DNA from: Escherichia coli
GTDB taxonomy: Bacteria; Pseudomonadota; Gammaproteobacteria; Enterobacterales; Enterobacteriaceae
Direction: 5' to 3' (one strand)
NCBI RefSeq assembly: GCF_003334355.1
Contig: NZ_QOWP01000021.1
DNA: 64,000 bases
Part shown: one piece after another, positions 13,891-39,928 of the stretch
Numbering within the stretch: the first letter of the stretch is position 1
Layout of the letters: every line of letters begins with the position of its first letter
Program-made: the position numbers and the translations under genes
The notes under the pieces: generated by a model
Databases searched by the model: none
What the model was told of the DNA's origin: nothing
Seen by the model: only the letters and a program-made list of their open reading frames with translations

Positions 13891-15159
13891 TTATTGATTA
13901 AATGCGGCGTGTAAGGCATCCACACTACGTGCCGCTCGCAGCGTGCGTCCGGGGTTACTCTGGCTTGCCAACAGCGTTTGTACCTTGCTGACAATATGCG
14001 CACCAATAGGAATTGCTGATGTCGCTGCCGGGGAGGGCGCATTGCAGGTGTGGATCGTGCGCGGGGTGGTGACAAACAGAAAATCGTCAATCAGCTTGCC
14101 GTCCGGCGATACCGCCTGCGCCCGCACACCGGCGGGCCAGGGCTGGAGATCGCTTAACGAAAGCCGGGGACAATACTTTTGCACCAGCCGCAGATAGCCG
14201 CTTTTGCACAGCGAGTTTTTCATCTCGCCCAGTCCTGAGCGTAGATGGTTTTGCAGCACCCGGCGAATCCCCGACGAGCCCAAAATCTCCAGCGTGTCGC
14301 TAAATGAGAAGTCGCGCTTGCGATAGCCTTCGCGTTTGAAAGCCAGCACCGCGTTTGGCCCGACGGTCACGCTGCCGTCGATCATGCGGGTGAGATGAAC
14401 GCCCAAAAACGGCATTGCCGGGTCGGGAATGGGGTAAATCAGGTGGTTAACAATCTGGTTATGCTCCGGCGCAAGGCGGAAATACTCGCCACGGAACGGG
14501 CAGATGATAAAGCCCGGTTCGAGTCCGAGCATTTTCACCAGCCGGTCAGCCATCAGCCCGGAACAGCTAATCAGCGTTGATGCTTCATATTCGCCGCCCT
14601 GACGGGTACGTATCACCACGCCGTTTTTATGCTCATTAAGCCCGCTGACTTCGGCGTTATAGATAATTTCACCGCCTCTGGACTGGAAGATTTTTGCCAT
14701 CGCCGCCGTCACGTCGCGGTAGCTGACAATGCCGCTGGACGGCACAAAAATGCCGCCGAGCCCGGTGATATTCGGTTCGCGCTCGCGCAGTTCGTCGGCG
14801 TTAAGCCATTCGCGCTCGATACCGTTCGCCGCTGTGCGTTCCCATAAGGCGCGCATCCGTTCCATTTCGAGATCGGACGTGGCAACCAGCATCTTGCCGC
14901 AGTTGTCGTAGCGAATGCCGTTTTGATCGCAAAAGGCTTTGGTGGCGCGGTTTCCCGCCAGGCAAAACTGCGCCTTCAGGCTGCCGGGCGTGTAATAGAC
15001 CCCGGCATGGATCACGCCGCTGTTGTGGCCCGTCTGGTGACAGGCCGGGCCGGACTCTTTTTCCAGCAACGCAATGCGGGCGTCCGGATAGACATCAATT
15101 AGTTGCATGGCGGTCGACATGCCGATGATGCCGCCGCCAATAATCACAAAATCATACAT
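13891..15159 (-). CDS. lhgO: L-2-hydroxyglutarate oxidase/dehydrogenase LhgO (YgaF)
   Basis: ORF track 444 aa; start set at MYDFVIIGGGIIGMSTAMQL, which places the FAD GxGxxG motif at the N-terminus (422 aa). Confidence 0.9.
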   Translation of the reverse strand: MYDFVIIGGGIIGMSTAMQLIDVYPDARIALLEKESGPACHQTGHNSGVIHAGVYYTPGSLKAQFCLAGNRATKAFCDQNGIRYDNCGKMLVATSDLEMERMRALWERTAANGIEREWLNADELREREPNITGLGGIFVPSSGIVSYRDVTAAMAKIFQSRGGEIIYNAEVSGLNEHKNGVVIRTRQGGEYEASTLISCSGLMADRLVKMLGLEPGFIICPFRGEYFRLAPEHNQIVNHLIYPIPDPAMPFLGVHLTRMIDGSVTVGPNAVLAFKREGYRKRDFSFSDTLEILGSSGIRRVLQNHLRSGLGEMKNSLCKSGYLRLVQKYCPRLSLSDLQPWPAGVRAQAVSPDGKLIDDFLFVTTPRTIHTCNAPSPAATSAIPIGAHIVSKVQTLLASQSNPGRTLRAARSVDALHAAFNQ

Positions 15160-15178: not shown

Positions 15179-16270
<1,092 letters not shown>

Positions 16271-16491
16271 TTATTGTGATCAAAAGCAACAAATTAGTAA
16301 CATTTAACGTAGGGTATTAAGGCAAAGTGAGACAGGAAATGAATAACTAAAGCAACAGGTTAGGGGGAGTTAACATTAGAGAACAGATTATCTGGTCGAT
16401 AAAAAACAGTAAATGGCTTCACTGCAAAATGACCGTTAGTAAACTAAACATATTATCTGCCCCGTTTTATCGGGGCAGATATAACATTAAA

Positions 16492-18744
16492 TTATAAATA
16501 GAGATAGTTCGGCGGTTCTCCTGTTTTCCCTAAAAGAAGAGCGCTACGCCCAGGAATATTGATATTTAGAGTTCCGCCTCTAAGCGTAAATACTTTACCA
16601 GGAGGGATAATTTTTCGGGTATTATTAATAATAATGTTAACGCTATTACTCCCCATGTTTTTGTATATTCCAGGTTGCAATTTGTTAGGCCAGGTACCTT
16701 CAACTTCTTCGTTTCCTTTATTTATTATAACTAGTCCATCATGAGGAGAGTGATTAATGTTCACAGAATCCCCACGACTAAAGGCCAGAACGTTTTTAGT
16801 TGCAGATACACCCTCAAATGCGCTCCATATTCCTGCTTTATCTATATATAATGCGTGGAATTCATTGTAGAGCTGCTGATAGGTAGAGCAACCTTTATTA
16901 AGCTACGCCTCACCGCCGACACGCGTGGACCCATCATAATTTTTAATTTCAGTCGTTGATTTTAATACTTGGCCATCCCAGTAAACTAAAGGCCTGCTGA
17001 ACGGCAGAGCGGCTATATATGCCATTGCTAATTGTTCATCTTGTTGATGGTTAAATAGAAAGTCATTGAAAAGATTACCATTGTTAGGAAAATCGTGGTT
17101 AATGTTAATCAATATCCGTCTTTCTGATGGGATACTTGAGATTGTGGAACCCGGTTTTGATGCAAGGGTTTGAAGATCTCCACCAAATGAAAAGGCTTTT
17201 ATCGTTTTCATGAGCAATGAAAAATCAATGGCGCTTAAATCATCTCTTTCATAAAGCAGTGATGACATTTGTTGTTCATCCAACTGACAAGTTACCAGAT
17301 ATTCCATGTAATTCATAACGGCTTTTTTATGATATTTTGGGTTAAATAAGTTAGTATTGTGTAACCGCTCATTATAATTTTTAAGCGGTGGGGTTATTGA
17401 TCTTTCTATTTGTTCATGTTTTGAGTGTTTTGCCGCATCATAACGTAAACCTCGTACGCCATATTTTCGCATTTCACGAACGTATTGATTTTGCAACATA
17501 ATAACCTGGTCACTTTTGGGTGTTGTTTTAGGCATTCCATTTAAACGCTTTTCTTTTAATGCATGGAGGTTTTCCCATTCATCCTTAGAGATGTTATCTT
17601 TACTTGCTTCGAAGTCTTTTGCAGTGAGATGTATATCTTCTGGATGGATTTGTTTACGTTCTTTTGTTACTGGATCTTTAATGAATGGAATCAAAACCTG
17701 ACCTTGCTAATAGCCAGGGATACCACCTTCTATATCTTTACTGATCTTCGCTCGTATATCAGCAAAGGGATAATCCAGGTCATTTTTACCACTACCCCCA
17801 ATTCCCATAAAGTTAAAGGTATAATCAGGAATGATATCGATACCAAATTTTTTAGCATCTTTAACCAATGCAATAAAATCCTGCAAATCTCCCATTGGAT
17901 TATGGATGGTACAAAGATCTTCGGATTGATAAGCATGAAACCAGTAACCCTTTTCTTCTTCGGGAGTTTCTGGTCCGTCGGCGCGGAAAGTTGTCACTGG
18001 AGGGATTTGTATATACCCATAATGGCAACGTGCAAATTCAGACATATTTTCTCTGATCTGCTGGTAGGTGGCATTAAAAGCATGAAGAATCGCTTCGCCA
18101 GGTTTTTTGGGGGTGATGATTTCACATTGTGATTTCTGAACAGCAGTAAGAGATTTACGCTCAAGTGTTTGCCGTAGATGTTCTAGATTGATTAATATTT
18201 TAAATGTTTCTTGCTGTCCGGAAGGTGACGTCACGTTAATATTATATACATCGGCTGCCAGCTCATAGTCAGGAATGTTAATAGCATATGCAACATATTT
18301 ATCTTTTGGGGAAGGTTTGTCAGATATAATGTGGGTGAAATTTTCAGCACGACCATACTGATAAACACCGCTGTTATCACCTCTTTCAATCATTGTATCT
18401 CGTTGATAAACCTATGTTTTTCTTTCTCCTATCCTGTCTGGCGCTGTAATGCTACGCTGTGCTGCTTTATTCAACTCTCGGTAAGTTGTATCTGGAGAAA
18501 GGGAAATTTTATAATCGTTTTTTAACAGATCATTAATAACTTTTTCTGCGTGAAAAGTTGATATAATTTCTCTGTCTTTTAATCCTTGAGGGTAAACTCC
18601 ACAAGAATTAATAATATTTGTTATACAGTTTAGATATTCTAATGTATTTAATTTGGAATTTAGATCCCCGTCAGTAATGTTCCATGATAACAATGTGGGG
18701 TTGTCGATAGGTAAATTTCTGGGTCCTGGTTTTATAGAAAACAT
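16492..18744 (-). pseudogene. ygaQ: Fragmented glycoside-hydrolase-like pseudogene (ygaQ-like), split across several frames
   Basis: Four consecutive same-strand ORFs (18412-18744, 17707-18393, 16903-17694, 16492-16764) with short gaps indicate frameshifts/stops; ygaQ lies next to ileY in K-12 (recollection). GH13 family assignment is uncertain. Confidence 0.6.
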
Positions 18745-19292
18745 AATAAAGTTCCTCTAATGGTAGAGTAATATGATGTATACGGAAACATAAAAATGTT
18801 TAATTGTTGTGAAAGTAATTGCAAACAGATGTCCTACTTTTATCCAATATTTATATGGAAAAGGATAATGCTTAAATCTGTTTTATTAATTATCGATGTG
18901 GTCTGGAGAGGCAACTGTCAAAAATCGCTCATACGAAACTAATGATTAGCAGAATAAGATCTATGAAAGAATATATTGCTATACGAAGTTTATTTTTATG
19001 GAGTGAAAAGTAACAGATATCATAATGATGCGAAAACTCTTCAGCTAATGTAATAAAGTTATATTATTAGATACAAAGTATCATTGAATCGATGATAACT
19101 ATAGATAGTGCTAATTATTAACATTTGCTTGTTGACTGCGAGTATCGACTTTGCGAATGGAGGCGGTGTCGGGTTTTATGTCGCGTGTAATCACGACCCA
19201 AGGTGAATGGGAACGCATAAAAATCTGTTATTTACATCATATGATCATCATGTTTATTGCGTGGTTTATAAGTATTGTTATTGCACACTCAA

Positions 19293-19368
19293 GGCCCTTT
19301 AGCTCAGTGGTTAGAGCAGGCGACTCATAATCGCTTGGTCGCTGGTTCAAGTCCAGCAAGGGCCACCA
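19293..19368 (+). tRNA. ileY: tRNA with CAU anticodon (ileY-type tRNA-Ile2 / annotated Met-like), 76 nt with encoded CCA
   Basis: GGCCCTTTAGCTCAGTGGTTAGAGCAGGCGACTCATAATCGC...GGTTCAAGTCCAGCAAGGGCCACCA; 7-bp acceptor stem pairs, anticodon loop CT-CAT-AA, T-loop GGTTCAAGTCC. Confidence 0.9.
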
Positions 19369-20117
19369 AATCATTATTTACGTATCAGGAAGAGTTAAGG
19401 GTACAAGGGGTACTCGATGGCGGTCTATATTTCATGACTAACGCCATTTCAAGGAAGAAGTGCGGTGGGTGGTTTCGAATGAGGGCTGGTGTTTTGGTAC
19501 GTGGCACGCCACTGCAATGTATTTATCCATCAGTACTCATTCAAAAGTACCTGGAAAAAATGCCTGCTATGCCAAGCGGGCAAATTGCTTACATGTGGAA
19601 TTAAGTAATTAACGATAAAGCCAGAGTATTATCATTTATTATACCCCTTCATTTAATCAGGTTAATTACTCAAATCACTGAACTATTCTCTGTTCGCTCA
19701 CTGATGATAAGTGAGTACCACAACCAATGTATGTAGAACAATGCCGTAGAGTAAGGATGAAATGTCTCTGCCACGCCTTAAACATCTACTACTGACCAGA
19801 ACACCCGCCGCAGGCAGATGAGTTTTGTGAGCGTTACAGGAGCGTGGCTATGCTCATTAACCAACGCTATTGAGATATAAATTTCTAACACTTGAAAAAC
19901 GATTTTCACTAATAAATTATAACGGTTTTTTTTATCATACAGCGAAATAACCTTTTGTTTATTAAATTTAACATTCCTGTGCTAATTTAATTAAAAGTTC
20001 CATGCGTAGCAAGTGAAGCAGTTAATGTCAGTAATTGTCTCAAATGAGCGTTTTTTATAGTGACAAACAGTAATAACATTAAAAATAGCCATGTAGACAT
20101 TAATTGAGGAATAGACA

Positions 20118-20600
20118 ATGTTAGTTAGTAAAAGCAACGGATTTAACGCTAGCGCAGTTTTGGGTAGTGGAAGTTATAATGAAAATAAATCTTCTAAACA
20201 CATGGAGCTACTAGCTCATAGTATTTTAAAATTAATTTGTAAGGAAGCTGCATCAGAGACGTATCGCGGTGCTCTTGAAACTTTACAAAAAATGATGTCT
20301 GAATGTATATATCAAGAAGGCAACGCCTTTGTCATTATGGGAGCTGGAGAACAATTAAAACGTATTAAATATGAAGTTGGTGAAAATAACTTAAAGGTAT
20401 TCAACGTACACTTTAATAATAATCACGAGTTAGTTAGTTCTGGTGAGCCTGACGTAATATGTTTAAGCAAGCAGGTCTGGGAAAATCTTCTCATTAAACT
20501 AAAGCTGGAAAACAATGAAAATGTGTTTTCTGAAACTAAAAAATTATCGAATAAAAATAATGCCGATCAGTTTTTTGAATGCGCTAAAAGAAATGAATAG
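20118..20600 (+). CDS. Hypothetical protein in AT-rich island remnant (ypjC-like position)
   Basis: 160-aa ORF with RBS gagga 7 nt upstream of ATG; AT-rich codon usage; no recognisable motifs. Confidence 0.5.
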   Translation: MLVSKSNGFNASAVLGSGSYNENKSSKHMELLAHSILKLICKEAASETYRGALETLQKMMSECIYQEGNAFVIMGAGEQLKRIKYEVGENNLKVFNVHFNNNHELVSSGEPDVICLSKQVWENLLIKLKLENNENVFSETKKLSNKNNADQFFECAKRNE

Positions 20601-20699
20601 AACCTTTTCGATAATATAAGAAAAAGTGATTTTCATGTTGGTTTACTTAAGCCAAGTAGTACGCGTAGTGTTATTTTAGAAACGCCGCCAAATGTCTGT

Positions 20700-21491
20700 A
20701 TGGAATCACGTAATTCATATGAAAACAAAATAGATGAGATTTCATCTTTGTCAGAGTCAAAGGAACACCCCATAGATATTCAAGAAAAAAAAGATGCGTT
20801 TGTGAATGAGTTCAAGGGGGTATTATTTGATAAAAATACAAGGTCTTCAGAGCTTCTGTTTAATTTTTATGAGTGTTGCTATAAGTTTTTACCAAGAGCT
20901 CAGCCTCAAGATAAAATCGATAGCTATAATTCAGCACTGCAAGCTTTTTCCATTTTTTGTTCATCTACGTTGACACATAATAATATAGGCTTTGATTTCA
21001 AATTATTTCCTGAAGTCAAGCTGTCTGGAGAACATCTTGAAACGGTATTCAAATACAAAAATGGCGATGATGTCCGGGAGATAGCCAAAATTAACATTAC
21101 TCTCCAAAAAGAAGAGGGTGGTTTATATAATTTACGTGGATTGGATTTTAAGGGGTGCTTCTTTTCTGGACAGAACTTCAGTAACTATGATATTCAATAT
21201 GTGAACTGGGGAACGTCATTGTTTGATGTTGATACTCCGTGTATTTTTAATGCGCCTGCTTACAACAAGAGTAATGAAAAATCATTAAAACCTGTGAGCG
21301 AAAACGGTTTAAGTGGAGTATTGACTGATCGTAATAATAAAATAAAACTCATCACGGGCGTGGCACCATTCGATGATATTTTATTTATGGATGATGACTT
21401 TGATGATAGTTCCTCTGAGGATGATCCCGTTGAGAATAGTCCTGTTGTGACTAGTCCCGTTGTATCAAGTTCTAAAAGCAGTTTTCAATGA
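20700..21491 (+). CDS. ypjB: Hypothetical protein, YpjB-like (263 aa)
   Basis: 263-aa ORF; size and position between ileY and the autotransporter match K-12 ypjB (recollection); acidic C-terminus DDDFDDSSSEDDPVENSP. Confidence 0.55.
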   Translation: MESRNSYENKIDEISSLSESKEHPIDIQEKKDAFVNEFKGVLFDKNTRSSELLFNFYECCYKFLPRAQPQDKIDSYNSALQAFSIFCSSTLTHNNIGFDFKLFPEVKLSGEHLETVFKYKNGDDVREIAKINITLQKEEGGLYNLRGLDFKGCFFSGQNFSNYDIQYVNWGTSLFDVDTPCIFNAPAYNKSNEKSLKPVSENGLSGVLTDRNNKIKLITGVAPFDDILFMDDDFDDSSSEDDPVENSPVVTSPVVSSSKSSFQ

Positions 21492-21900
21492 TTAATAAAT
21501 GGCAATTTTTACAAAGAGATAATAACGTAGATTGAAACAATATGTATTATTGATTGAGTAAACGGGATTATTCTTCACACTACATCCATTTTAGTGTCAC
21601 TACCAAAGAAAAAGGGGCTACGTTTTCATGTAACCCCTTGATTTATTTGGTGGGCTGGCAGTGACTGAATTGGTGCTGTAATTGGTTGAAATATTTCATC
21701 TAATGTCTGGTTCAACTTTCCTTAGCTGCCTGAAAGTTTTTTGATCTTACCCAGCAATAACAGCGTTACGGTGCACCACGCCTGACTGAAGAACTGCGTG
21801 CTCAGGGTTACCACTTCAACGTAAAACCGTGGCAGGAGGTCCGGACTGAAAAAACTGGTCAGGACATCATCGGCAGGGAACGCACTGCTAGTCTGTAAAC

Positions 21901-22063
21901 TGAACCGACTGGGGCGCAGTATGTGGCATCTTGTCGTGCAGTTGGAGGAGCTGTGCGAACGTGGTATTAACTTTCGTGCTCTGGCCCAATCTATATTTGC
22001 CCAACAATGGGGGGACGAATGCTGTAAAAGTAAAACAATCTGCGATCTCAAAGTTATTGTGTG
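21901..22063 (+). pseudogene. pinH: Serine recombinase (DNA invertase Pin/Hin family) fragment, pinH-like remnant
   Basis: In-frame translation LNRLGRSMWHLVVQLEELCERGINFRALAQSI matches the conserved invertase core (KLDRLGRSM...RGI.F.SL); no intact N-terminal catalytic domain or start. Confidence 0.5.
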
Positions 22064-22402
22064 ATTTTTATGTGAGCAGAAGATATTCATCAGAAACGAT
22101 TATGTAAATCATTTTATTTTGCCAACGGCCTCATTGTCGAAAGAAAAGAATACGCCCGTATTTCCTGAATGGATTGACTTTTTTATCCAACCACACTTCA
22201 GCGCACTGCGTTTAAAAAATGCCTCATTCTTATGCGGAATATCATCATTTCATCATGATGTCTTTGATGAGCGGTGAACACAATACACTTGCGCTGTCTC
22301 TTCAGGATGAATCCCCTGGTCTGGTGCCTGTGGGCTGATGTTGCAGCAAAGCTAAGGTCGCTTAAACGCTACTCAGTATTCACTTTTCAGAGGATGAAAT
22401 TT

Positions 22403-25400
22403 ATGAACAGGACCAGTCCCTATTATTGTCGCCGCTCAGTACTTTCCTTATTGATATCTGCCTTGATATATGCCCCGCCCGGGATGGCTGCCTTCACTAC
22501 TAATGTTATTGGTGTGGTAAACGATGAGACTGTAGATGGCAACCAAAAAGTGGATGAACGAGGTACAACAAATAACACTCATATTATCAACCATGGCCAG
22601 CAGAATGTTCATGGCGGGGTATCTAATGGAAGTCTTATTGAATCTGGTGGATATCAAGATATAGGAAGTCATAACAATTTTGTGGGGCAGGCTAATAATA
22701 CAACCATTAACGGTGGCAGACAGTCAATTCATGACGGGGGTATTTCCACAGGTACGACAATCGAGAGTGGCAATCAGGACGTTTATAAAGGGGGTATCAG
22801 CAATGGAACGACAATTAAGGGCGGTGCTTCACGCGTAGAGGGAGGGAGTGCGAATGGAATACTCATTGATGGTGGTAGCCAGATAGTAAAAGTTCAAGGG
22901 CATGCTGATGGTACAACGATAAATAAGTCTGGCTCTCAGGACATCACGCAAGGAAGTCTGACAACGAACACAACCATAAATGGTGGTCGACAGTATGTTG
23001 AACAGAGCACAGTAGAAACAACCACCATTAAAAATGGCGGTGAGCAAAGAGTATATGAGAGCCGTGCGCTGGACACGACGATTGAAGGCGGAACTCAGTC
23101 TCTGAATAGTAAGTCAACGGCAAAAAATACGCATATCTATTCTGGTGGCACGCAAATTGTTGATAACACCAGCACCTCGGATGTTATTGAAGTTTATTCT
23201 GGTGGCGTGCTTGATGTTAGTGGTGGTACGGCAACAAATGTTACCCAGCACGATGGTGCAATTTTAAAAACTAACACTAACGGTACGACGGTGAGCGGTA
23301 CGAATAGTGAAGGTGCATTCTCCATCCACAATAAAGTGGCAGACAATGTGTTGCTGAAAAATGGAGGCCATTTAGAAGTATCTCATTCCGCAAACAAGAC
23401 GATTATTAAAGATAAAGGAACAATGTCAGTTTTAACCAATGCTAAAGCTGATGCGACCCGAATAGATAATGGCGGGGTTATGGATGTTGCAGGAAACGCG
23501 ACAAATACCATAATTAATGGTGGCACACAGAATATTAATAATTATGGCATAGCCACAGGCACCAATATCAACAGCGTAACGCAAAATATCAAAAGCGGCG
23601 GGAAAGCTGACACAACAATTATATCCTCCGGGAGCCGGCAGGTTGTTGAGAAAGATGGTACGGCAATTGGCAGCAATATTAGCGCCGGAGGCTCGCTGAT
23701 TGTCTATACCGGCGGTATTGCACATGGGGTTAACCAGGAGACGGGCAGTGCTTTAGTTGCCAACACGGGCGCAGGGACTGATATCGAAGGATACAACAAG
23801 CTCTCTCACTTCACTATTACCGGAGGGGAGGCTAATTATGTTGTGCTGGAAAATACCGGCGAACTGACGGTAGTGGCTAAAACCTCGGCGAAAAATACCA
23901 CCGTTGATGCTGGCGGTAAACTGATCGTCCAGAAGGAGGCCAAAACAGATACCACCAGACTTAACAATGGCGGCATTCTGGAGGTTCAGGACGGTGGAGA
24001 GGCTAAGCATGTAGAGCAACAATCCGGCGGCGCATTAATTGCTTCCACGACTTCCGGAACACTTATCGAAGGAACCAACAGTTATGGTGATGCTTTCTAC
24101 ATCAGGAATTCAGAAGCTAAAAATGTAGTGCTGGAAAACGCTGGCTCATTAACAGTCGTCACTGGTTCCCGGGCAGTTGATACGATTATTAATGCCAACG
24201 GCAAAATGGATGTTTATGGAAAAGATGTTGGCACTGTACTTAATAGTTCTGGCACCCAAACAATATATGCCAGTGCCACTTCTGATAAAGCAAATATCAA
24301 AGGTGGCAAGCAAACGGTATATGGTTTAGCCACTGAGGCAAATATCGAAAGTGGTGAACAAATTGTTGATGGTGGGTCAACAGATAAAACACACATCAAT
24401 GGTGGCACGCAAACCGTTCAGAATTATGGTAAGGCGATCAATACCGATATCGTCTCTGGCCTACAACAAATTGTGGCAAACGGGACAGCGGAAGATTCCA
24501 TTATTAATGGCGGTTCACAGGTAGTTAATGAGGGCGGTCTGGCTGAAAACTCGGTGCTTAATGACGGCGGCACACTCGATGTGCGGGAGCAAGGCAGCGC
24601 AACGGGGATACAGCAGAGTAGCCAGGGCGCGTTGGTTGCAACCACCAGGGCGACGCGGGTCACAGGGACACGCGCTGATGGCGTCGCGTTCAGCATCGAG
24701 CAGGATGCGGCGAACAATATCCTGCTGGCAAATGGCGGCGTGTTAACCGTGGAGTCAGACACCACTTCCGCCAAAACACAGGTCAATGCGGGCGGTCGGG
24801 AGATCGTCAAAACAAAAGCCACTGCGACAGGCACGACGCTCACCGGCGGCGAACAAATCGTCGAGGGGGTGGCGAATGAGACAACAATTAACGACGGCGG
24901 AATACAAACAGTTTCAGCTAACGGAGAGGCAATAAAAACAAAGATCAATGAAGGCGGTACGCTGACAGTCAACGATAATGGCAAAGCGACAGATATCGTC
25001 CAGAACAGCGGTGCCGCTCTCCAGACGAGCACGGCTAACGGTATTGAAATCAGCGGTACTCACCAGTACGGTACTTTTTCCATTTCCGGCAATTTAGCGA
25101 CCAATATGTTGCTGGAAAATGGCGGTAATTTATTGGTATTAGCAGGTACCGAAGCTCGCGACTCCACGGTTGGCAAGGGTGGGGCAATGCAAAACCTGGG
25201 TCAGGACTCCGCCACAAAGGTTAACTCTGGCGGGCAATATACCCTTGGGCGGTCAAAAGATGAGTTTCAGGCTCTGGCCCGGGCAGAAGATCTCCAGGTC
25301 GCTGGCGGTACGGCAATCGTCTACGCAGGTACGCTGGCGGATGCATCGGTCAGTGGCGCGACAGGAAGCCTGTCGTTAATGACGCCACGGGATAATGTTA

Positions 25401-34075: not shown

Positions 34076-35017
34076 ATGGATGCACTGCATGTCGCGCTTG
34101 AAAATCTGATTAGAGATGATGGTCAAACACTAAATAGTTATTTTAGTGAAGTTAAAGTTAATTCATTGATTGAAAATACAAATGCAACTTGTCATTTTCA
34201 TTGCCTTAATCTTGATGGCAATGGACGTCCTCGGGTAGACGCGTTAATCCAATTCTTGAACGATAAAGTAGTTGATTATGCTATTCCAAGGAAAAAAATC
34301 AATGAGGCAGTGCAATATTTTAATGAAACACAATCAACAGCGAAAATAACAAAATTAGCAAATCAAGCAAAAAGATTATTTACTAGGCTTGCAAATAGTG
34401 GCGAAGGCGGTGAATTTATCCTTTTTTTATTTGCAGAGCAATTCCTTAGATTTCCACAAATTATTTGCAAAATGAGCCTGAAAACGAGTTCTCAAATGCA
34501 TTACCATGGTGCAGATGGAATACATATAGGCGTAGATAAAGATAATAAAAAATTATGTTTATACTGGGGCGAGTCTAAACTCTATTCCAGTCTGAGCAAA
34601 GGTATTTCTGAGTGTATGGATAGTATAGCTCCATTACTTCAAAGTTCTATGGGAATAGAAGGCGCTGAGACACGTGATATGCAGTTGCTGGAGTCGCACT
34701 TAAATGTTGATGATATAGAACTAGAACAAGCGTTGAAAAGATTCTTAGATCCTGATAGCCCGGATTTTAATAAATTGGAATACAGAGGAATATGCTTAGT
34801 TGGGTTTGATCTTAAAGATTATCCACAAGGGCCCAGTTCAATTGATATCAGTGAACTAGTTGCTTTGATTAATACTAAAGTCGGGAAATGGTCAACTAGT
34901 GTGCAAGGTGGTATAGTTAATAAAAAACTTGATCGCTTTGCTATGCATGTTTTTATTCTTCCTTTTCCTTCAGTAAAAGCATTTAGGGCTAGTTTAATTA
35001 AAGCATTGGAGAGTTGA
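34076..35017 (+). CDS. Nuclease-like protein with D...ExK-type motif; HamA-like (DUF1837-type) candidate, component A of a Hachiman-like defense pair
   Basis: 313-aa AT-rich ORF; HYHGADGIHIGVDKDNKKLCLYWGESKLY (about 34508-34578) fits a PD-(D/E)xK-like catalytic signature; stop sits 1 nt before the helicase start. Confidence 0.55.
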   Translation: MDALHVALENLIRDDGQTLNSYFSEVKVNSLIENTNATCHFHCLNLDGNGRPRVDALIQFLNDKVVDYAIPRKKINEAVQYFNETQSTAKITKLANQAKRLFTRLANSGEGGEFILFLFAEQFLRFPQIICKMSLKTSSQMHYHGADGIHIGVDKDNKKLCLYWGESKLYSSLSKGISECMDSIAPLLQSSMGIEGAETRDMQLLESHLNVDDIELEQALKRFLDPDSPDFNKLEYRGICLVGFDLKDYPQGPSSIDISELVALINTKVGKWSTSVQGGIVNKKLDRFAMHVFILPFPSVKAFRASLIKALES

Positions 35018-35018
35018 A

Positions 35019-37601
35019 ATGTCGTTGCGAGATTTATCTGGGTGGTTGATTAAGAATCAAGGATTCTTAAGAAAATATCAGGCATTAGTCGCTAACTCGA
35101 TAAAAGATCAATTTCCAGAGTTAAAATCAGATGTAATCCCACAGATTAGTTCTGAGGATGTCGGCTATCTTTTAACATGTGCTAGTTCTTTGGCTTTCTC
35201 AAGTGATGAGAAATGCCAAGATGCAGCCTTAAGGATTGCACAGTATTGCTTATTGAATGAAAAAAGTGAAGCAAGAAAAGATAGTGCTGCATTAATTCTT
35301 GATTCATTATCTAATAATCCAGCAATACAACTTGCTGAAAATAGGGGGTATCTTAACCCTGATTTCGAAGAAAGATTACCCTTAAAGGCTCAGTTAGAAC
35401 TAACTAAAAGAAAAATTCTATATACAATTGAAATAGATGCTGATAAGCATATTTATGCTAATAGGTTTCAATCAGAGTTTTGGGATGCGGTACAAGAAAA
35501 CTCATGGGTTAGTGTCTCTGCTCCCACCTCTGTAGGAAAATCATTTATCCTGGAATCTTGGGTGGAGCAGTTTGTAAAAAGAAATAAGAATTGCTTAGTT
35601 ATTTATATCGTACCAACAAGGGCATTGATTTCAGAAGTATATTCTGAGTTGCAAAAACGTTTGGATCCTAATTTAACAAATATAGTTAATATTCAGACAC
35701 TACCATTGAGTAATGTATACCAGAGCGAAAAATCTAATGTCTTCATATTTACACAGGAAAGATTAAATTTATTCTACAATCATTTCTCACAAATTCCAAA
35801 GATAGACGTCTTAGTTGTTGATGAAGCACACAAGATCGGTGATGGTGGAAGAGGTGTTATTCTTCAACATGTAATTGAACTGACTTGTCTAAATAACCCT
35901 GATTCAAAAGTTATCTTTGCAAGTCCTTTCACCTTAAATCCTGAAATATTGCTCAGTGATGCTCCAATATTAAAAAACAAAAGAACTATAAAAAGTGACT
36001 ATGTTACAGTTAATCAAAATTTAATATGGGTAGAACAAAAACCACGCAAGACCAAAGATTGGTTGATGTATTATTTTGCAAACGGTGAAAAACGCGAGTT
36101 AGGAAACTTTTCTTTAGAAAATGCACCATCTCCTGAAAGTAAAAGATTGCCTTTTGTAGCTCTTTGTTTAGGTAAGGGGGCTTCTGGTAACGTAGTTTAC
36201 GTAAATGGAGCCGCTGAAGCAGAATCTACTTCCAAGCTAATATCTGCAAGTATAGAAAATGAGACTGAGGATGAAGAAATTTTAGCTCTCGTTGAGCTTA
36301 GTGAGACAATTATACATAAAAATTTCGCATTAAATCGCACTCTAAAAAAGAGAGTCGCTTTTCATTATGGCAACATGCCTTTAATAATAAAGGGCGAGAT
36401 TGAACGATTGTTTAGTAAAGGTAAGATTGATTTTTTAATTTGTACCTCAACTTTAGTTGAGGGCGTAAACATGGCTTGTAAAAATATTTTTATAAGAGGC
36501 CCTAAAAAGGGTAATTCAACCCCGATGCGAGAAGAGGATTTTTGGAATCTTGCTGGCAGAGCTGGTCGTTGGGGAAAAGAATTCCAAGGTAATGTCATCT
36601 GCATCGATAGCGACAATGAAAAAATTTGGAATGGAGAGCCTCCAAAAACCAAAAAAAATATATTTATAACTCGCGCCACGGATGCTATTTCCCATGACAT
36701 GGATAAGTTGGTTTCCTATATTTTTTCAGAGCATCATTTTGGTATGTCTGAGCGGAATCCTAATCTCCAGAGTCTATTTAGTTATTTATGTTCATCATTT
36801 TATTTTTATAATGGCTTGGATAATAATCCTTACATGGAAAAGTACAATATAAAAAATATCGATGTTTTAAATGAAGCAATATTTGATGTTTTTGATTCTT
36901 TAACTTTTCCACACGAATTGGTTGTGCGGCATCCTGGTATAAGCCCGCTTTTAATGCAAAACCTTTGGGATAGATTTTCGCGGGATACAAACAAACCTGT
37001 AGAGAGATTACTGCTTTCTGAACCTGGTAGTAATGATGCGTTAGATTCATATGTATCCGCATTCTCTAGAATTAGTGATACTCTGAGTAAGAAGCTAGGT
37101 TATAATTCAAAAGGAGCTTACGTACAGGCCTTGCTAGTTTCCAAGTGGATGAAAGGTTATCCCCTAGCAAGATTGATCTCGGATAGAATAAGATATAACA
37201 AAAAGAAAAATATTGTTTTCAAAGAAGCGACTTTAATACGAGGGGTTATGAAGGATGTTGAAGAGATCGCTCGCTATCAAGCTCCAAGGCTTTTAGGATG
37301 TTATAATGATTTATTAAAAAGCTTTTATCTTTCGATAGATCGCACAGACTTAGCAAAAGATGTTGAAGATATCGGTGTTTATTTAGAACTAGGTGTAAGT
37401 TTAAAAACTCAGATTTCACTAATAGGGCTTGGCTTTTCAAGAACTGCTGCTGTAATGATTTCAGAGCTTATTCCTAATGATAGTTTAGATGAGGAAGAAT
37501 GCATTAATTGGATTAAGGACAATAAAGTTGACATGGAAGAACTGCCACAATTAGTTCAAAACGAAATACATAATATATTTCGTAACTTTTGGGTACAATA
37601 G
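35019..37601 (+). CDS. SF2 DEAH-box helicase; HamB-like candidate, component B of a Hachiman-like defense pair
   Basis: 860-aa ORF with motif I APTSVGKSF (about 35521-35547), motif II VVDEAHK (about 35815-35835), motif VI LAGRAGRWG (about 36551-36575), followed by a roughly 300-aa C-terminal extension. Confidence 0.6.
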   Translation: MSLRDLSGWLIKNQGFLRKYQALVANSIKDQFPELKSDVIPQISSEDVGYLLTCASSLAFSSDEKCQDAALRIAQYCLLNEKSEARKDSAALILDSLSNNPAIQLAENRGYLNPDFEERLPLKAQLELTKRKILYTIEIDADKHIYANRFQSEFWDAVQENSWVSVSAPTSVGKSFILESWVEQFVKRNKNCLVIYIVPTRALISEVYSELQKRLDPNLTNIVNIQTLPLSNVYQSEKSNVFIFTQERLNLFYNHFSQIPKIDVLVVDEAHKIGDGGRGVILQHVIELTCLNNPDSKVIFASPFTLNPEILLSDAPILKNKRTIKSDYVTVNQNLIWVEQKPRKTKDWLMYYFANGEKRELGNFSLENAPSPESKRLPFVALCLGKGASGNVVYVNGAAEAESTSKLISASIENETEDEEILALVELSETIIHKNFALNRTLKKRVAFHYGNMPLIIKGEIERLFSKGKIDFLICTSTLVEGVNMACKNIFIRGPKKGNSTPMREEDFWNLAGRAGRWGKEFQGNVICIDSDNEKIWNGEPPKTKKNIFITRATDAISHDMDKLVSYIFSEHHFGMSERNPNLQSLFSYLCSSFYFYNGLDNNPYMEKYNIKNIDVLNEAIFDVFDSLTFPHELVVRHPGISPLLMQNLWDRFSRDTNKPVERLLLSEPGSNDALDSYVSAFSRISDTLSKKLGYNSKGAYVQALLVSKWMKGYPLARLISDRIRYNKKKNIVFKEATLIRGVMKDVEEIARYQAPRLLGCYNDLLKSFYLSIDRTDLAKDVEDIGVYLELGVSLKTQISLIGLGFSRTAAVMISELIPNDSLDEEECINWIKDNKVDMEELPQLVQNEIHNIFRNFWVQ

Positions 37602-37693
37602 TCTTATTTAGACGATTTTTTAAACAATCAATAGAGAAGTTTTTGAATTTTATCATTCTTCCAGTAACAAAAACTTCTCTTTTATAACACCGC

Positions 37694-38152
37694 TCAGGCT
37701 ATTCCAGAATAGGCTTTGCTTACTTCACTATGCCTTGTGCCGCAATGCCTCAAAATAACAAGGCCATGTTGCAGTAACGCCTCACTACGTTCAGGTTCAA
37801 ACCATTTCCCGTTAAATTTTCCTCCGTGAAAAAGATTGTTTCTTACACGGCGGATTAACAAAAAAAGAAATTTTGCTAAATCTTTTTCTTGTGGTAAAGA
37901 ATCATCCCAAACTAAAGAGTCATCTTCTATGATTTGTTTTTTGGGTGGGTGTTCTTTAAAGTAGGTGATAGCAGCAATTAGCTCTGGATCAGTTGTGTTA
38001 TTTATGATTTCAGAAACTTGCTTTGCATACTCATCCCAGTTCGCTTTAGCATCTTTTATTTTATGATGAAGTCCACATGCCTTAAGGCAATATTCGTAAC
38101 GTGAAAACTCTCTAAAGAATTCATAACATAAATTATCTAGATTATTCTCCAT
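37694..38152 (-). CDS. Small HEPN-like protein candidate (Rx4H motif), possible abortive-infection/toxin-type RNase
   Basis: 152-aa ORF with GGAG RBS; motif RRVRNNLFHGG (about 37823-37855) fits the HEPN R-x4-6-H signature; divergent from the helicase gene and adjacent to int. Confidence 0.45.
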   Translation of the reverse strand: MENNLDNLCYEFFREFSRYEYCLKACGLHHKIKDAKANWDEYAKQVSEIINNTTDPELIAAITYFKEHPPKKQIIEDDSLVWDDSLPQEKDLAKFLFLLIRRVRNNLFHGGKFNGKWFEPERSEALLQHGLVILRHCGTRHSEVSKAYSGIA

Positions 38153-38181
38153 GAACTATATCTCCATGTATAACAAGTTAA

Positions 38182-39381
38182 CTAATATTGATTGCGCTCG
38201 TACACTTTTTGGCCCCACCAATTCATAAGTCCTATTCGTTGCTCAAGGTAAGTTGAACGATTATATGCTCTGCGCACTTCATTTTTATCACTATGTGCAA
38301 GAGCAGCCTCAATTACATCTGCATTAAAACCCGCTTCATTTAATGCGGTGCTGGCAATTGAACGCAATCCATGAGCAACCAATCTACCACCAAATCCAAT
38401 CCTTTTTAAAGCAGCATTTGCCGTCTGGCTATTCATTGGTTGCTTTGGGTCATTCCGACTCGGGAAAACATGTTCACGATGGGCACTGATTAGCTTCATC
38501 ACATCAAGAATCTCTAATGCCTGAGGAGATAGAGGGACTATGTGTTCCCGCTTAGCCTTCATTCGTTCAGCTGGGATAGTCCAGAGCTTTGCATCGAGAT
38601 CGAGCTCAGCCCACCTAGCACCGGAAGCCTCAGAAGGACGAACTAGAGTCAGGAGTTGCCACTCAATGAGGCAGCGAGTCGGAACAGACAAATTTGACAT
38701 GACGAGAGAACGCATCAGCATAGGCAATTCTTCTGGGCGCAACGTAGGCATATTTTGTTTTTTTGGCTTCTCAAAGGCCATTCCAATGCCTGATGCTGGA
38801 TTGGCATCAATAAGACCAGTATTTACGGCATAAATCATTATCTCGTTAACACGCTGCACCAACCGGCGCACCGTCTCCAGCGCCCCACGAGCTTTGATCG
38901 GTTCAAGGGCTTCAACCAGTGTTCGGGCTTTGATTTGCTGGACAGGGATCTCCCCGATGGTGGGGAATACGTCTTTTTCCAGTGAACGCCATATATCTTT
39001 AGCGTAATCATGGGTAACGCTTTTGCTTTTGAGCTGGAACCAGTTAGCGGCGACCGTCGAAAAAATACTGTCCAGAGCGATTTGCTGCTGTTCCTCTGCA
39101 ACTTCAGCTTGAATTTGCGGGTCGATTCCGTTGGCTAATAGGGCAAGGTAATCTGCTCTTAACCCTCGGGCATCAGCAAGAGAAAGGGCAGGAAAAGCAC
39201 CAAGTCCCATCATAGTCCGCTGTTTTGTTGCTGGGCGTTGATAGCGAAAGCGCCAGAGTTTCTTGCCGCTAGTTTTCACTATCAGGAAAAGCCCATCGCC
39301 ATCATGCAGCGTTAGATCCTTCTCTAACGCTTTCGCGCGCAGAACTTCGGTGTTGGTCAGGGGGCGTGTTGTCCGTGCCAC
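38182..39381 (-). CDS. intA: P4-type tyrosine integrase (IntA/SlpA-like), GTG start
   Basis: 399-aa ORF ...HDGDGLFLIVKTSGKKLWRFRYQRP... with C-terminal catalytic HGLRSIASTAL and RRAYNRSTY (Tyr); starts about 185 bp from the ssrA 3' end. Confidence 0.9.
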   Translation of the reverse strand: MARTTRPLTNTEVLRAKALEKDLTLHDGDGLFLIVKTSGKKLWRFRYQRPATKQRTMMGLGAFPALSLADARGLRADYLALLANGIDPQIQAEVAEEQQQIALDSIFSTVAANWFQLKSKSVTHDYAKDIWRSLEKDVFPTIGEIPVQQIKARTLVEALEPIKARGALETVRRLVQRVNEIMIYAVNTGLIDANPASGIGMAFEKPKKQNMPTLRPEELPMLMRSLVMSNLSVPTRCLIEWQLLTLVRPSEASGARWAELDLDAKLWTIPAERMKAKREHIVPLSPQALEILDVMKLISAHREHVFPSRNDPKQPMNSQTANAALKRIGFGGRLVAHGLRSIASTALNEAGFNADVIEAALAHSDKNEVRRAYNRSTYLEQRIGLMNWWGQKVYERNQY

Positions 39382-39400
39382 TGTGGCCGCTCCTTCATGA

Positions 39401-39456
39401 ATTGGTATACGCTTTTAGGTATACATCCTACCGTATACCTAAACGTATACCAATAA
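39401..39456. promoter_or_regulatory. 56-bp palindrome in the int upstream region (candidate Int arm-type/operator sites)
   Basis: ATTGGTATACGCTTTTAGGTATAC ... GTATACCTAAACGTATACCAAT: the two 22-24 nt arms are near-perfect reverse complements; one arm recurs at 27210-27231. Confidence 0.45.
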
Positions 39457-39493
39457 TCATCGGATTTAGCCGGATGTTCTCGGACAACGACAA

Positions 39494-39530
39494 ACACAAA
39501 AAAGCCCGCAGGGCTTGTGCCATGCGGGCT
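39494..39530 (-). terminator. Rho-independent terminator downstream of ssrA
   Basis: On the minus strand gcccgca...tgcgggc hairpin followed by cttttttgt, about 35 nt past the tmRNA CCA end. Confidence 0.6.
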
Positions 39531-39565
39531 TTCTGTACTTCACCGGACGTATCCGGATCATTATT

Positions 39566-39928
39566 TGGTGGAGCTGGCGGGAGTTGAACCCGCGTCCGAA
39601 ATTCCTACATCCTCGGTACTACATGCTTAGTCAGTCTTTACATTCGCTTGCCAGCTGCGGACGGACACGCCACTAACAAACTAGCCTGATTAAGTTTTAA
39701 CGCTTCAACCCCAGGCAGGGCTTCCACGCGATCTCTTTTGGGTTTGACCTCTCTTGATCCCCGTCCTAAGAGCGGAGGCTAGGGAGAGAGGGCTCTAAGC
39801 AGGTTATTAAGCTGCTAAAGCGTAGTTTTCGTCGTTTGCGACTATTTTTTGCGGCTTTTTACGAGGCCAACCGCCCCTCGGCATGCACCTTGGGTTTCGC
39901 AAATCCCGTCGAATCCAGAATCAGCCCC
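39566..39928 (-). ncRNA. ssrA: tmRNA (SsrA), 363 nt
   Basis: Reverse complement reads GGGGCTGATTCTGGATTCGACGGGATTTGCGAAACCC...tag-peptide region...GGACGCGGGTTCAACTCCCGCCAGCTCCACCA, the E. coli tmRNA with tRNA-like ends. Confidence 0.95.

Follow-up and report, generated by a model that had tools for sequence, protein, structure and literature searches.

The segment considered here, positions 16492-22063 of a 64-kb stretch of Escherichia coli DNA (contig NZ_QOWP01000021.1; the whole stretch is referred to as the window), lies in the interval between ssrA and glaH. It carries the glycoside hydrolase family 13 (GH13) pseudogene ygaQ, the isoleucine tRNA gene ileY, the split gene ypjCB, and pinH, a remnant of a serine invertase gene. 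The G+C content was 29-44% over positions 16000-22000, as compared to 54-61% in the adjacent gab and lhgO genes. The segment is most probably part of the known K-12-type ssrA-glaH variable interval, a mosaic of resident, horizontally derived, AT-rich genes lost mainly by point mutation, together with the scars of mobile elements. The features of the interval and its borders are as follows.

13891-15159, minus strand: lhgO, mapped from the annotated coding sequence of 1269 nucleotides (nt).
15284-16261, minus strand: glaH, mapped from the annotated 978-nt coding sequence.
16492-18744, minus strand: ygaQ pseudogene, GH13 family, 750 codons (MG1655 b4462, Pfam, Foldseek, and alleles).
18745-19292, no strand: AT-rich intergenic region between the divergent ygaQ and ileY, about 29-40% G+C.
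19293-19368, plus strand: ileY, tRNA-Ile2, anticodon CAU (ARAGORN, Rfam, and MG1655 annotation).
19369-19690, no strand: native 3' flank of ileY, conserved in Escherichia albertii.
20118-21491, plus strand: ypjCB, comprising ypjC of 160 amino acids (aa) and ypjB of 263 aa (NCBIfam NF050179 and Pfam).
21747-21841, plus strand: internal fragment of a transposase gene of an IS3-family insertion sequence (IS), about 95 nt, frameshifted.
About 21825-22064, plus strand: pinH remnant (similarity to Gin/Pin-type invertases).
22015-22402, plus strand: leader of the ypjA cassette (DNA similarity to the ymgJ region at 22015-22300).
22403-26977, plus strand: ypjA/ehaD, an adhesin-like autotransporter gene, at the far end of the block missing from B2 strains.
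26987-27140, no strand: 154 base pairs (bp) that adjoin the 3' end of ssrA in strains without an ssrA island.
About 27140-39565: P4-like element of about 12.4 kb, with an integrase open reading frame (ORF) at 38182-39381 on the minus strand.
39566-39928, minus strand: ssrA.

The whole locus is already known from E. coli K-12, and its state is one of ordinary genome decay; it contains no new system. The annotation of MG1655 covers ypjA, pinH (as a pseudogene), ypjB, ypjC, ileY (tRNA-Ile, CAU), ygaQ (as a pseudogene), and glaH, and the annotation of a K-12-type strain likewise covers all features of the locus. The window is in reverse orientation to the MG1655 map. The order and orientation of b2647-b2659 (ypjA, pinH', ypjB, ypjC, ileY, ygaQ', glaH) match those of the window, as do the four amber codons. 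Relative to MG1655, the window ygaQ differs at 5 of 2253 positions and the tRNA is identical. Relative to the K-12-type strain, the window shows six substitutions and two deletions over 16000-22300, one deletion of 1 bp and one of 11 bp, the latter at 19071 between ygaQ and ileY. The strain distribution was evaluated using 5426 complete E. coli genomes. Every one of the 5426 matched the segment in part, 2864 covered at least 80% of its length, and the highest identity, 99.7%, was to K-12-type strains. The AT-rich locus has been partly studied as H-NS/Hha-bound DNA with intragenic promoters in ygaQ (PMC7229825, PMC2408971): an H-NS-silenced intragenic promoter within ygaQ was used in the former study, and Hha binding at ileY and ypjC was reported in the latter.

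The window copy of ygaQ is a single 2253-nt frame, the same length as intact alleles, whose translation contains exactly three internal stops. Its ORF pieces of 110, 228, 263, and 90 aa, with ends at 18744, 18393, 17694, and 16764, share one phase, and the in-frame TAG codons at 18412-18414, 17707-17709, and 16903-16905 correspond to codons 111, 346, and 614. A preliminary description of this DNA had the gene as glycoside hydrolase-like and broken into at least four frames; the GH13 likeness and the four ORF pieces stand, and the four frames are in fact one, interrupted by three TAG codons. The comparison proposed there, with strains that carry an intact homolog, identified four such strains (605, 26a, MMC-J-0091, and O145). 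Each has an uninterrupted 2253-nt allele, and all four have TGG at codons 111, 346, and 614. The K-12-type frame is also free of insertions and deletions (indels) across the 2253 nt.

The alleles at each stop position were counted in the complete genomes using allele-specific 55-mers, each 28-nt seed of which was forced to span the variant base. The counts of TAG and TGG were 2403 and 1655 at codon 614, 1082 and 2374 at codon 346, and 1041 and 1285 at codon 111, respectively. The stops also occur separately. Specifically, ETEC1746 carries W111TAG alone together with a 1-bp insertion, and CE0026f and JXZ9A32M carry W614TAG alone. The K-12 allele is a mosaic: its 5' third resembles that of ETEC1746 and its 3' two-thirds resemble that of CE0026f. 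These haplotypes therefore point to at least two separate knock-outs that were joined by recombination, W346TAG having been added later. Recurrent mutation at the same Trp codons across lineages was considered and rejected, as the haplotype mosaic points to recombination of two separately arisen stops. Between intact alleles, the ratio of nonsynonymous to synonymous substitution rates (dN/dS) was 0.08-0.19, with dS up to 0.18; between two stop-carrying alleles, it was 0.32, based on small counts. Intact ygaQ is under purifying selection.

Intact YgaQ is a predicted GH13 glycoside hydrolase with a catalytic Asp nucleophile, a Glu acid/base, and an Asp stabilizer. Pfam matches were to Alpha-amylase (PF00128) and Alpha-amylase_C (PF02806). 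An AlphaFold2 model (predicted template modeling score 0.73) matched alpha-amylases in Foldseek (E=5e-17, probability 1.00). Residues R434, D436, K439, H440, E481, H550, and D551 are invariant in an alignment reaching cyanobacterial amylases, and their codons are still present in the window copy. Like GH13 alpha-amylases such as that of Pseudoalteromonas haloplanktis and E. coli MalS-type models, intact YgaQ has the Asp/Glu/Asp, RxDxxKH, and HD motifs, and the model shares the (beta/alpha)8 plus C-domain fold (TM 0.67-0.69, normalized to the target). Unlike them, it has an extra N-terminal region of ~230 aa without a known domain, and its Pfam and NCBIfam scores are weak, far below the cut-offs. 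The window copy departs further from a GH13 gene in lacking an open frame, as three in-frame TAG codons interrupt it. A 110-aa "YgaQ" of W3110 was reported to act as a flap nuclease and to confer resistance to mitomycin C (PMC4725251). This protein is the stump upstream of the W111 amber codon (18415-18744) of a 750-aa GH13 enzyme; the N-terminal 110 codons have no recognizable domain of their own.

Relatives of YgaQ with more than 30% identity were limited to E. coli, E. albertii, and one gut metagenome contig, the identity between the E. coli and E. albertii proteins being 60%. The only distant relative, on a human gut metagenome contig (L013, 4916-7390), is 34% identical and 824 aa long, and its neighbors are InvH-, FidL/MarT-like, EAL-domain, and invasin/intimin-like genes, a setting that resembles a virulence island. 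A scan of one genome per species yielded nothing useful for YgaQ: the sole match was a 2.8-kb contig labelled Planococcaceae, which we suspect to be contamination, as we suspect that the species-representative E. coli genome is without the region.

On the other side of the tRNA, the ORFs of 160 aa (20118-20600) and 263 aa (20700-21491) share a frame in DNA of 32-36% G+C. The preliminary description had noted both ORFs, which are present, as two; they are one gene, ypjCB, split by a CAG to TAG change. The TAG, at 20598-20600, is codon 161; intact alleles, 449-484 aa long, have CAG there, and the window sequence is otherwise co-linear with an intact allele. Over its full length, an intact YpjCB allele matched the NCBIfam model NF050179 ("YpjCB family"), scoring 930.7 bits where the cut-off is 650. 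Pfam models the two K-12 halves as separate families, DUF5507 (model length 160) and DUF5508 (model length 263), which coincide with them exactly. Q161TAG occurs in 1435 of the 5426 complete genomes, and other strains carry other lesions, namely Q119TAG, C41TGA, and a frameshift. The dN/dS ratio between intact alleles was 0.5-1.0. The gene evolves almost neutrally, yet its frame is open in many lineages.

The protein is the product of an E. coli-restricted, fast-evolving orphan gene. It formed 439 clusters at 90% identity, with all named matches from E. coli or a closely related enterobacterium, and no relative was detectable outside E. coli among 1.84 billion representative proteins. The AlphaFold2 model had a predicted local distance difference test score of 46, and Foldseek returned no match below E=0.018. 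Seven pentapeptide-repeat-like units were seen by eye (NLRGL DFKGC FFSGQ NFSNY DIQYV NWGTS LFDVD) and were not detected by Pfam. Carriage as phage or plasmid cargo was considered and rejected: a search of 50,697 phage records yielded no homolog, and three of the four "plasmid" matches were records of 4.8-4.9 Mb that resemble mislabelled chromosomes.

The serine invertase remnant named in the preliminary description was identified as pinH. Its LNRLGRSM motif starts at 21900 and its RGINFRAL motif ends at 21983, and it aligned with residues 39-95 of the 193-aa Gin invertase (E=3e-11). Its DNA shares 78-82% identity with the invertase genes of coliphages, P2-like phages among them. It shares the RLGRS and RGINFR motifs of the Gin/Pin/Cin/Hin invertases (Mu, e14, P1, and P2-like phages); in contrast to these, it is reduced to about 57 residues out of about 190, and no invertible segment was found. 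The region of the catalytic Ser, the nucleophile near residue 9-10, is absent from the alignment, which covers only Gin residues 39-95, and the IS3-family transposase fragment was confirmed directly upstream. The C-terminal helix-turn-helix is also absent: homology stops near residue 95, and the sequence past about 22015 is the ypjA leader. With the IS3 fragment on its left and the ypjA leader on its right, the pin gene has therefore been truncated at both ends. Every examined strain that has the block carries this same remnant, and the truncation is therefore old. The ypjA leader at 22015-22300 has 87.8% DNA identity to the ymgJ region near minE, beside another autotransporter pseudogene. The two leaders look like parts of a duplicated leader-autotransporter cassette. 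An ORF of 52 aa at 22119-22277 was considered as a YmgJ paralog and rejected, as the likeness was at the DNA level only, with no protein similarity.

The tRNA with anticodon CAU that the preliminary description placed between ygaQ and the AT-rich block is ileY, as established by ARAGORN, Rfam, and identity to MG1655. ARAGORN folded it as a cloverleaf with anticodon CAT, Rfam RF00005 (tRNA) scored 73.8 bits against a gathering score of 29, and all 76 of its nucleotides are identical to those of MG1655 ileY. ARAGORN labelled it Met because the tool does not model the lysidine modification. TilS uses the acceptor-stem pairs C4-G69 and C5-G68; the ileY acceptor stem, GGCCCTT...AAGGGCC, provides both. 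Stem changes between strains were compensatory or wobble. For example, K-12 has U-A at pair 6-67, where several E. coli strains have U-G and E. albertii has C-G, and strain 26a has A-U in place of G-C at pair 28-42. By sequence, ileY appears to be functional and to decode AUA. The number of ATA codons per 1000 was 26.6 in ygaQ and 17.5 in ypjCB, as compared to 2.4 in lhgO and 6.1 in glaH, a usage 3-10 times that of the neighboring core genes, which fits an AUA-decoding tRNA placed between the two ATA-rich genes. As a rare-codon tRNA gene, ileY was lost from strains W and B through IS-mediated deletions (PMC3032704). In further strains, the ileY-ypjCB or ygaQ-ileY region either contains copies of IS3 or IS2 or has undergone deletions bounded by IS elements.

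The extent of the variable DNA was defined by comparison with a B2 strain, in which only 682 bp separate glaH and ssrA. The region upstream of the B2 glaH matches the window up to 16355, and the 154 bp next to the B2 ssrA match 26987-27140, directly after the ypjA stop codon in the window. A 10.6-kb block, ygaQ-ileY-ypjCB-pinH-ypjA (16356-26986), thereby stands in place of 333 unrelated bp of the B2 strain, and these 333 bp matched nothing in the loci examined. As B2 strains are without the whole block, ileY included, the variable unit is the ssrA-glaH interval and not an ileY island. From the same junctions, the P4-like element is a separate insertion at ssrA, in agreement with the preliminary description of it as newer than, and distinct from, the material around ileY. 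Its core repeat is short, GCTGGCGG(G)AGT, and it has displaced the 154-bp segment from ssrA. At about 12.4 kb (27140-39565), it is shorter than CP4-57 of MG1655, which is about 22 kb; the source strain is K-12-like and is not K-12.

In E. albertii, the order is ssrA...ileY-ygaQ-glaH, without ypjCB, pinH, or ypjA. Between ssrA and ileY (L012, 7828-8793), E. albertii has genes for a YkgR-like protein and for ribosomal protein L31/L36 paralogs (ykgM/ykgO-like) where E. coli has ypjCB-pinH-ypjA. These orders suggest that ileY-ygaQ is the old part of the interval and that the DNA from ileY to ssrA is the variable part. We further infer that B2 strains most likely lost the block.

B2 strains could instead represent an ancestral empty state, with the 10.6-kb block being one old composite island in the ssrA-glaH interval and ileY a cargo gene that supplies the decoder for AUA. 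This reading agrees with the absence of the entire block, tRNA included, from the B2 strain, with the richness of the block in A+T and in ATA codons, and with the presence of at least 80% of the segment in only about half of the complete genomes, as counted above. In addition, ssrA is a known hot spot and is occupied here by the P4-like element. However, E. albertii has ileY-ygaQ in the same place and orientation without ypjCB, pinH, and ypjA, so the block is not a single unit. Moreover, the 154 bp that normally adjoin ssrA separate ypjA from ssrA or from the P4-like element, and the block is therefore not enclosed between a copy of ssrA and the ssrA flank. A motif at 21647-21669, TGGTGGGCTGGCAGTGACTGAA, is similar to the 3' end of ssrA, TGGTGGAGCTGGCGGGAGTTGAA, has the same orientation, and was considered as the boundary of an older ssrA island. 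This TGGTGG-GCTGGC motif was not used: its score of 11 was no better than shuffled controls, equalling the lowest maximum of 30 shuffled queries (range 11-15) as well as the score of the true right attachment site (attR) at 27140, a comparison without power. Overall, we consider a composite island unlikely.

Less likely still is the proposal of the preliminary description that an old island integrated into ileY and then eroded, leaving ygaQ and ypjCB-pinH as its remains on either side. What stands of this proposal is that the DNA is AT-rich on both sides of the tRNA, varies between strains, and is decaying, and that ileY can serve as a phage attachment site. Indeed, ileY of strain 605 is occupied by a P2-like prophage of 30.9 kb that has genes for an integrase, a cI repressor, and a tail. 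At the far end of this prophage, 46 nt of ileY, from the anticodon loop to CCA, are repeated. The ileY 3' end is thus a bacterial attachment site (attB) for P2-like phages, and it is empty in this window. In the 605 lysogen, two positions distinguish the tRNA from the attR copy. Also in keeping with the proposal, the invertase and IS fragments lie 2.4 kb downstream of ileY, pinH resembles invertases of P2-like phages, and the base composition is atypical.

Other evidence argues against integration of the flanking material at ileY. The direct repeat of the ileY 3' end for which the preliminary description had suggested a search was not found: even with up to 3 mismatches allowed, the last 17 or 25 nt of ileY do not recur anywhere in the 64-kb window. 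No integrase ORF was found between 19369 and 26977, where the only trace of a recombinase is the serine invertase fragment. In these respects, the window differs from strain 605, which uses the same tRNA as attachment site: the window has neither integrase nor repeat, and native flank follows the tRNA. That flank is conserved in E. albertii as far as 19690, and in 605 it comes after the distal repeat of the prophage as well; the first 320 bp 3' of the tRNA are therefore native and not island DNA. A boundary of presence and absence exactly at the tRNA 3' end was found only for the 605 prophage, E. albertii homology continuing to 19690. Further, ygaQ lies on the 5' side of ileY, where tRNA-targeting elements are not known to land. 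In E. albertii, too, the divergent ileY-ygaQ pair is the immediate neighbor of glaH, and the phage records contain no homolog of ypjCB. The proposal is only partly supported, and we regard an eroded ileY island as quite improbable.

Within the native flank, a block of ~170 nt (19465-19640) is ~90% identical between E. coli and E. albertii, and its own flanks hardly align. Its minus strand carries a promoter-like site at 19665-19638 (TTAACC-16-TATAAT, 10 of 12 consensus positions) and, about 80 nt from this site, an intrinsic terminator at 19577-19553 whose hairpin has one stem difference, U-G wobble versus C-G. The block had no Rfam match, its predicted fold contained nothing past the terminator hairpin (z = -0.14), and a scan of one genome per species for it yielded nothing useful. 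A 41-codon ORF is open in both species and was rejected as not coding-like, as 10 of 41 residues differ. The block could be an unannotated small RNA candidate next to ileY. Alternatively, it could be the relic terminator of a gene that preceded ypjCB, a reading that follows from the orientation of the E. albertii ykgM/ykgO-like genes, which point toward the block.

All four internal stops in ygaQ and ypjCB are TAG, and each of the three in ygaQ arose from TGG. The probability of three out of three TGG to TAG changes was 2e-5 with a uniform mutation model and 4e-3 with a model restricted to G:C to A:T transitions, calculated post hoc from the codon content of an intact allele. Dcm (CCWGG) hot spots were considered as a source of the changes and rejected, since the contexts ACATGGG, TATTGGC, and GCGTGGC do not fit. 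The pattern is best treated as a curiosity, given the post hoc nature of the test and the TGA codons, frameshifts, and IS elements that break these genes in other strains. We give little credence to a reading in which the amber-only pattern is not due to chance, whether through context-specific mutation or through amber suppression or read-through, and in which, separately, the block at 19465-19640 is a small RNA. The more specific idea that the amber codons do not simply inactivate, with ygaQ and ypjCB expressed conditionally by TAG read-through or natural amber suppressors, would suit the amber statistic, the indel-free K-12-type ygaQ frame, and the high frequency of W614TAG, and yet it is extremely improbable: the same genes are inactivated elsewhere by TGA, frameshifts, IS insertions, and deletions; dN/dS rises between stop-carrying alleles, if on small counts; zero indels is not significantly below the expected 1-2; and ARAGORN found no suppressor tRNA in the window.

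The layout of the locus, the allele states, the spread over strains, and the att repeat of the prophage were observed directly. Based on these, we infer the following order of events for the decaying mosaic that we favor. First, ileY and ygaQ would be an old divergent pair beside glaH, common to E. albertii, and ygaQ of the K-12 lineage would have been killed by the W614 amber mutation, the commonest, by W111 amber, which arose on a different haplotype and was brought in by intragenic recombination, and later by W346 amber. Second, the orphan ypjCB was split here by the Q161 amber mutation, other strains breaking the gene differently. Third, a phage-type invertase gene would have been truncated on the left by an IS3-family element and on the right at the junction with the ypjA cassette, to yield pinH. 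Fourth, a functional ileY would continue to decode AUA while its 3' end, a phage attB, is unoccupied here. Fifth, the P4-like element inserted independently at ssrA.

Four points weigh against this account. The B2 difference can be read in either direction, as a deletion or as an ancestral empty site. At only 60% identity between the E. coli and E. albertii proteins, the shared position of ygaQ could stem from exchange and not from vertical descent. The account provides no origin for ypjCB, and plain neutral decay does not explain three TGG to TAG changes out of three.

The locus itself offers little in the way of discovery, as it is annotated in the reference genome and has been partly studied. 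Two corrections are useful. The Pfam families DUF5507 and DUF5508 are the two parts of a single gene, which an amber codon divides in K-12, and the 110-aa "YgaQ" reported as a nuclease is the N-terminal W111 amber stump of a 750-aa glycoside hydrolase. Many natural E. coli strains have intact copies of both genes next to ileY, and the function of these genes should therefore be studied there and not in K-12.

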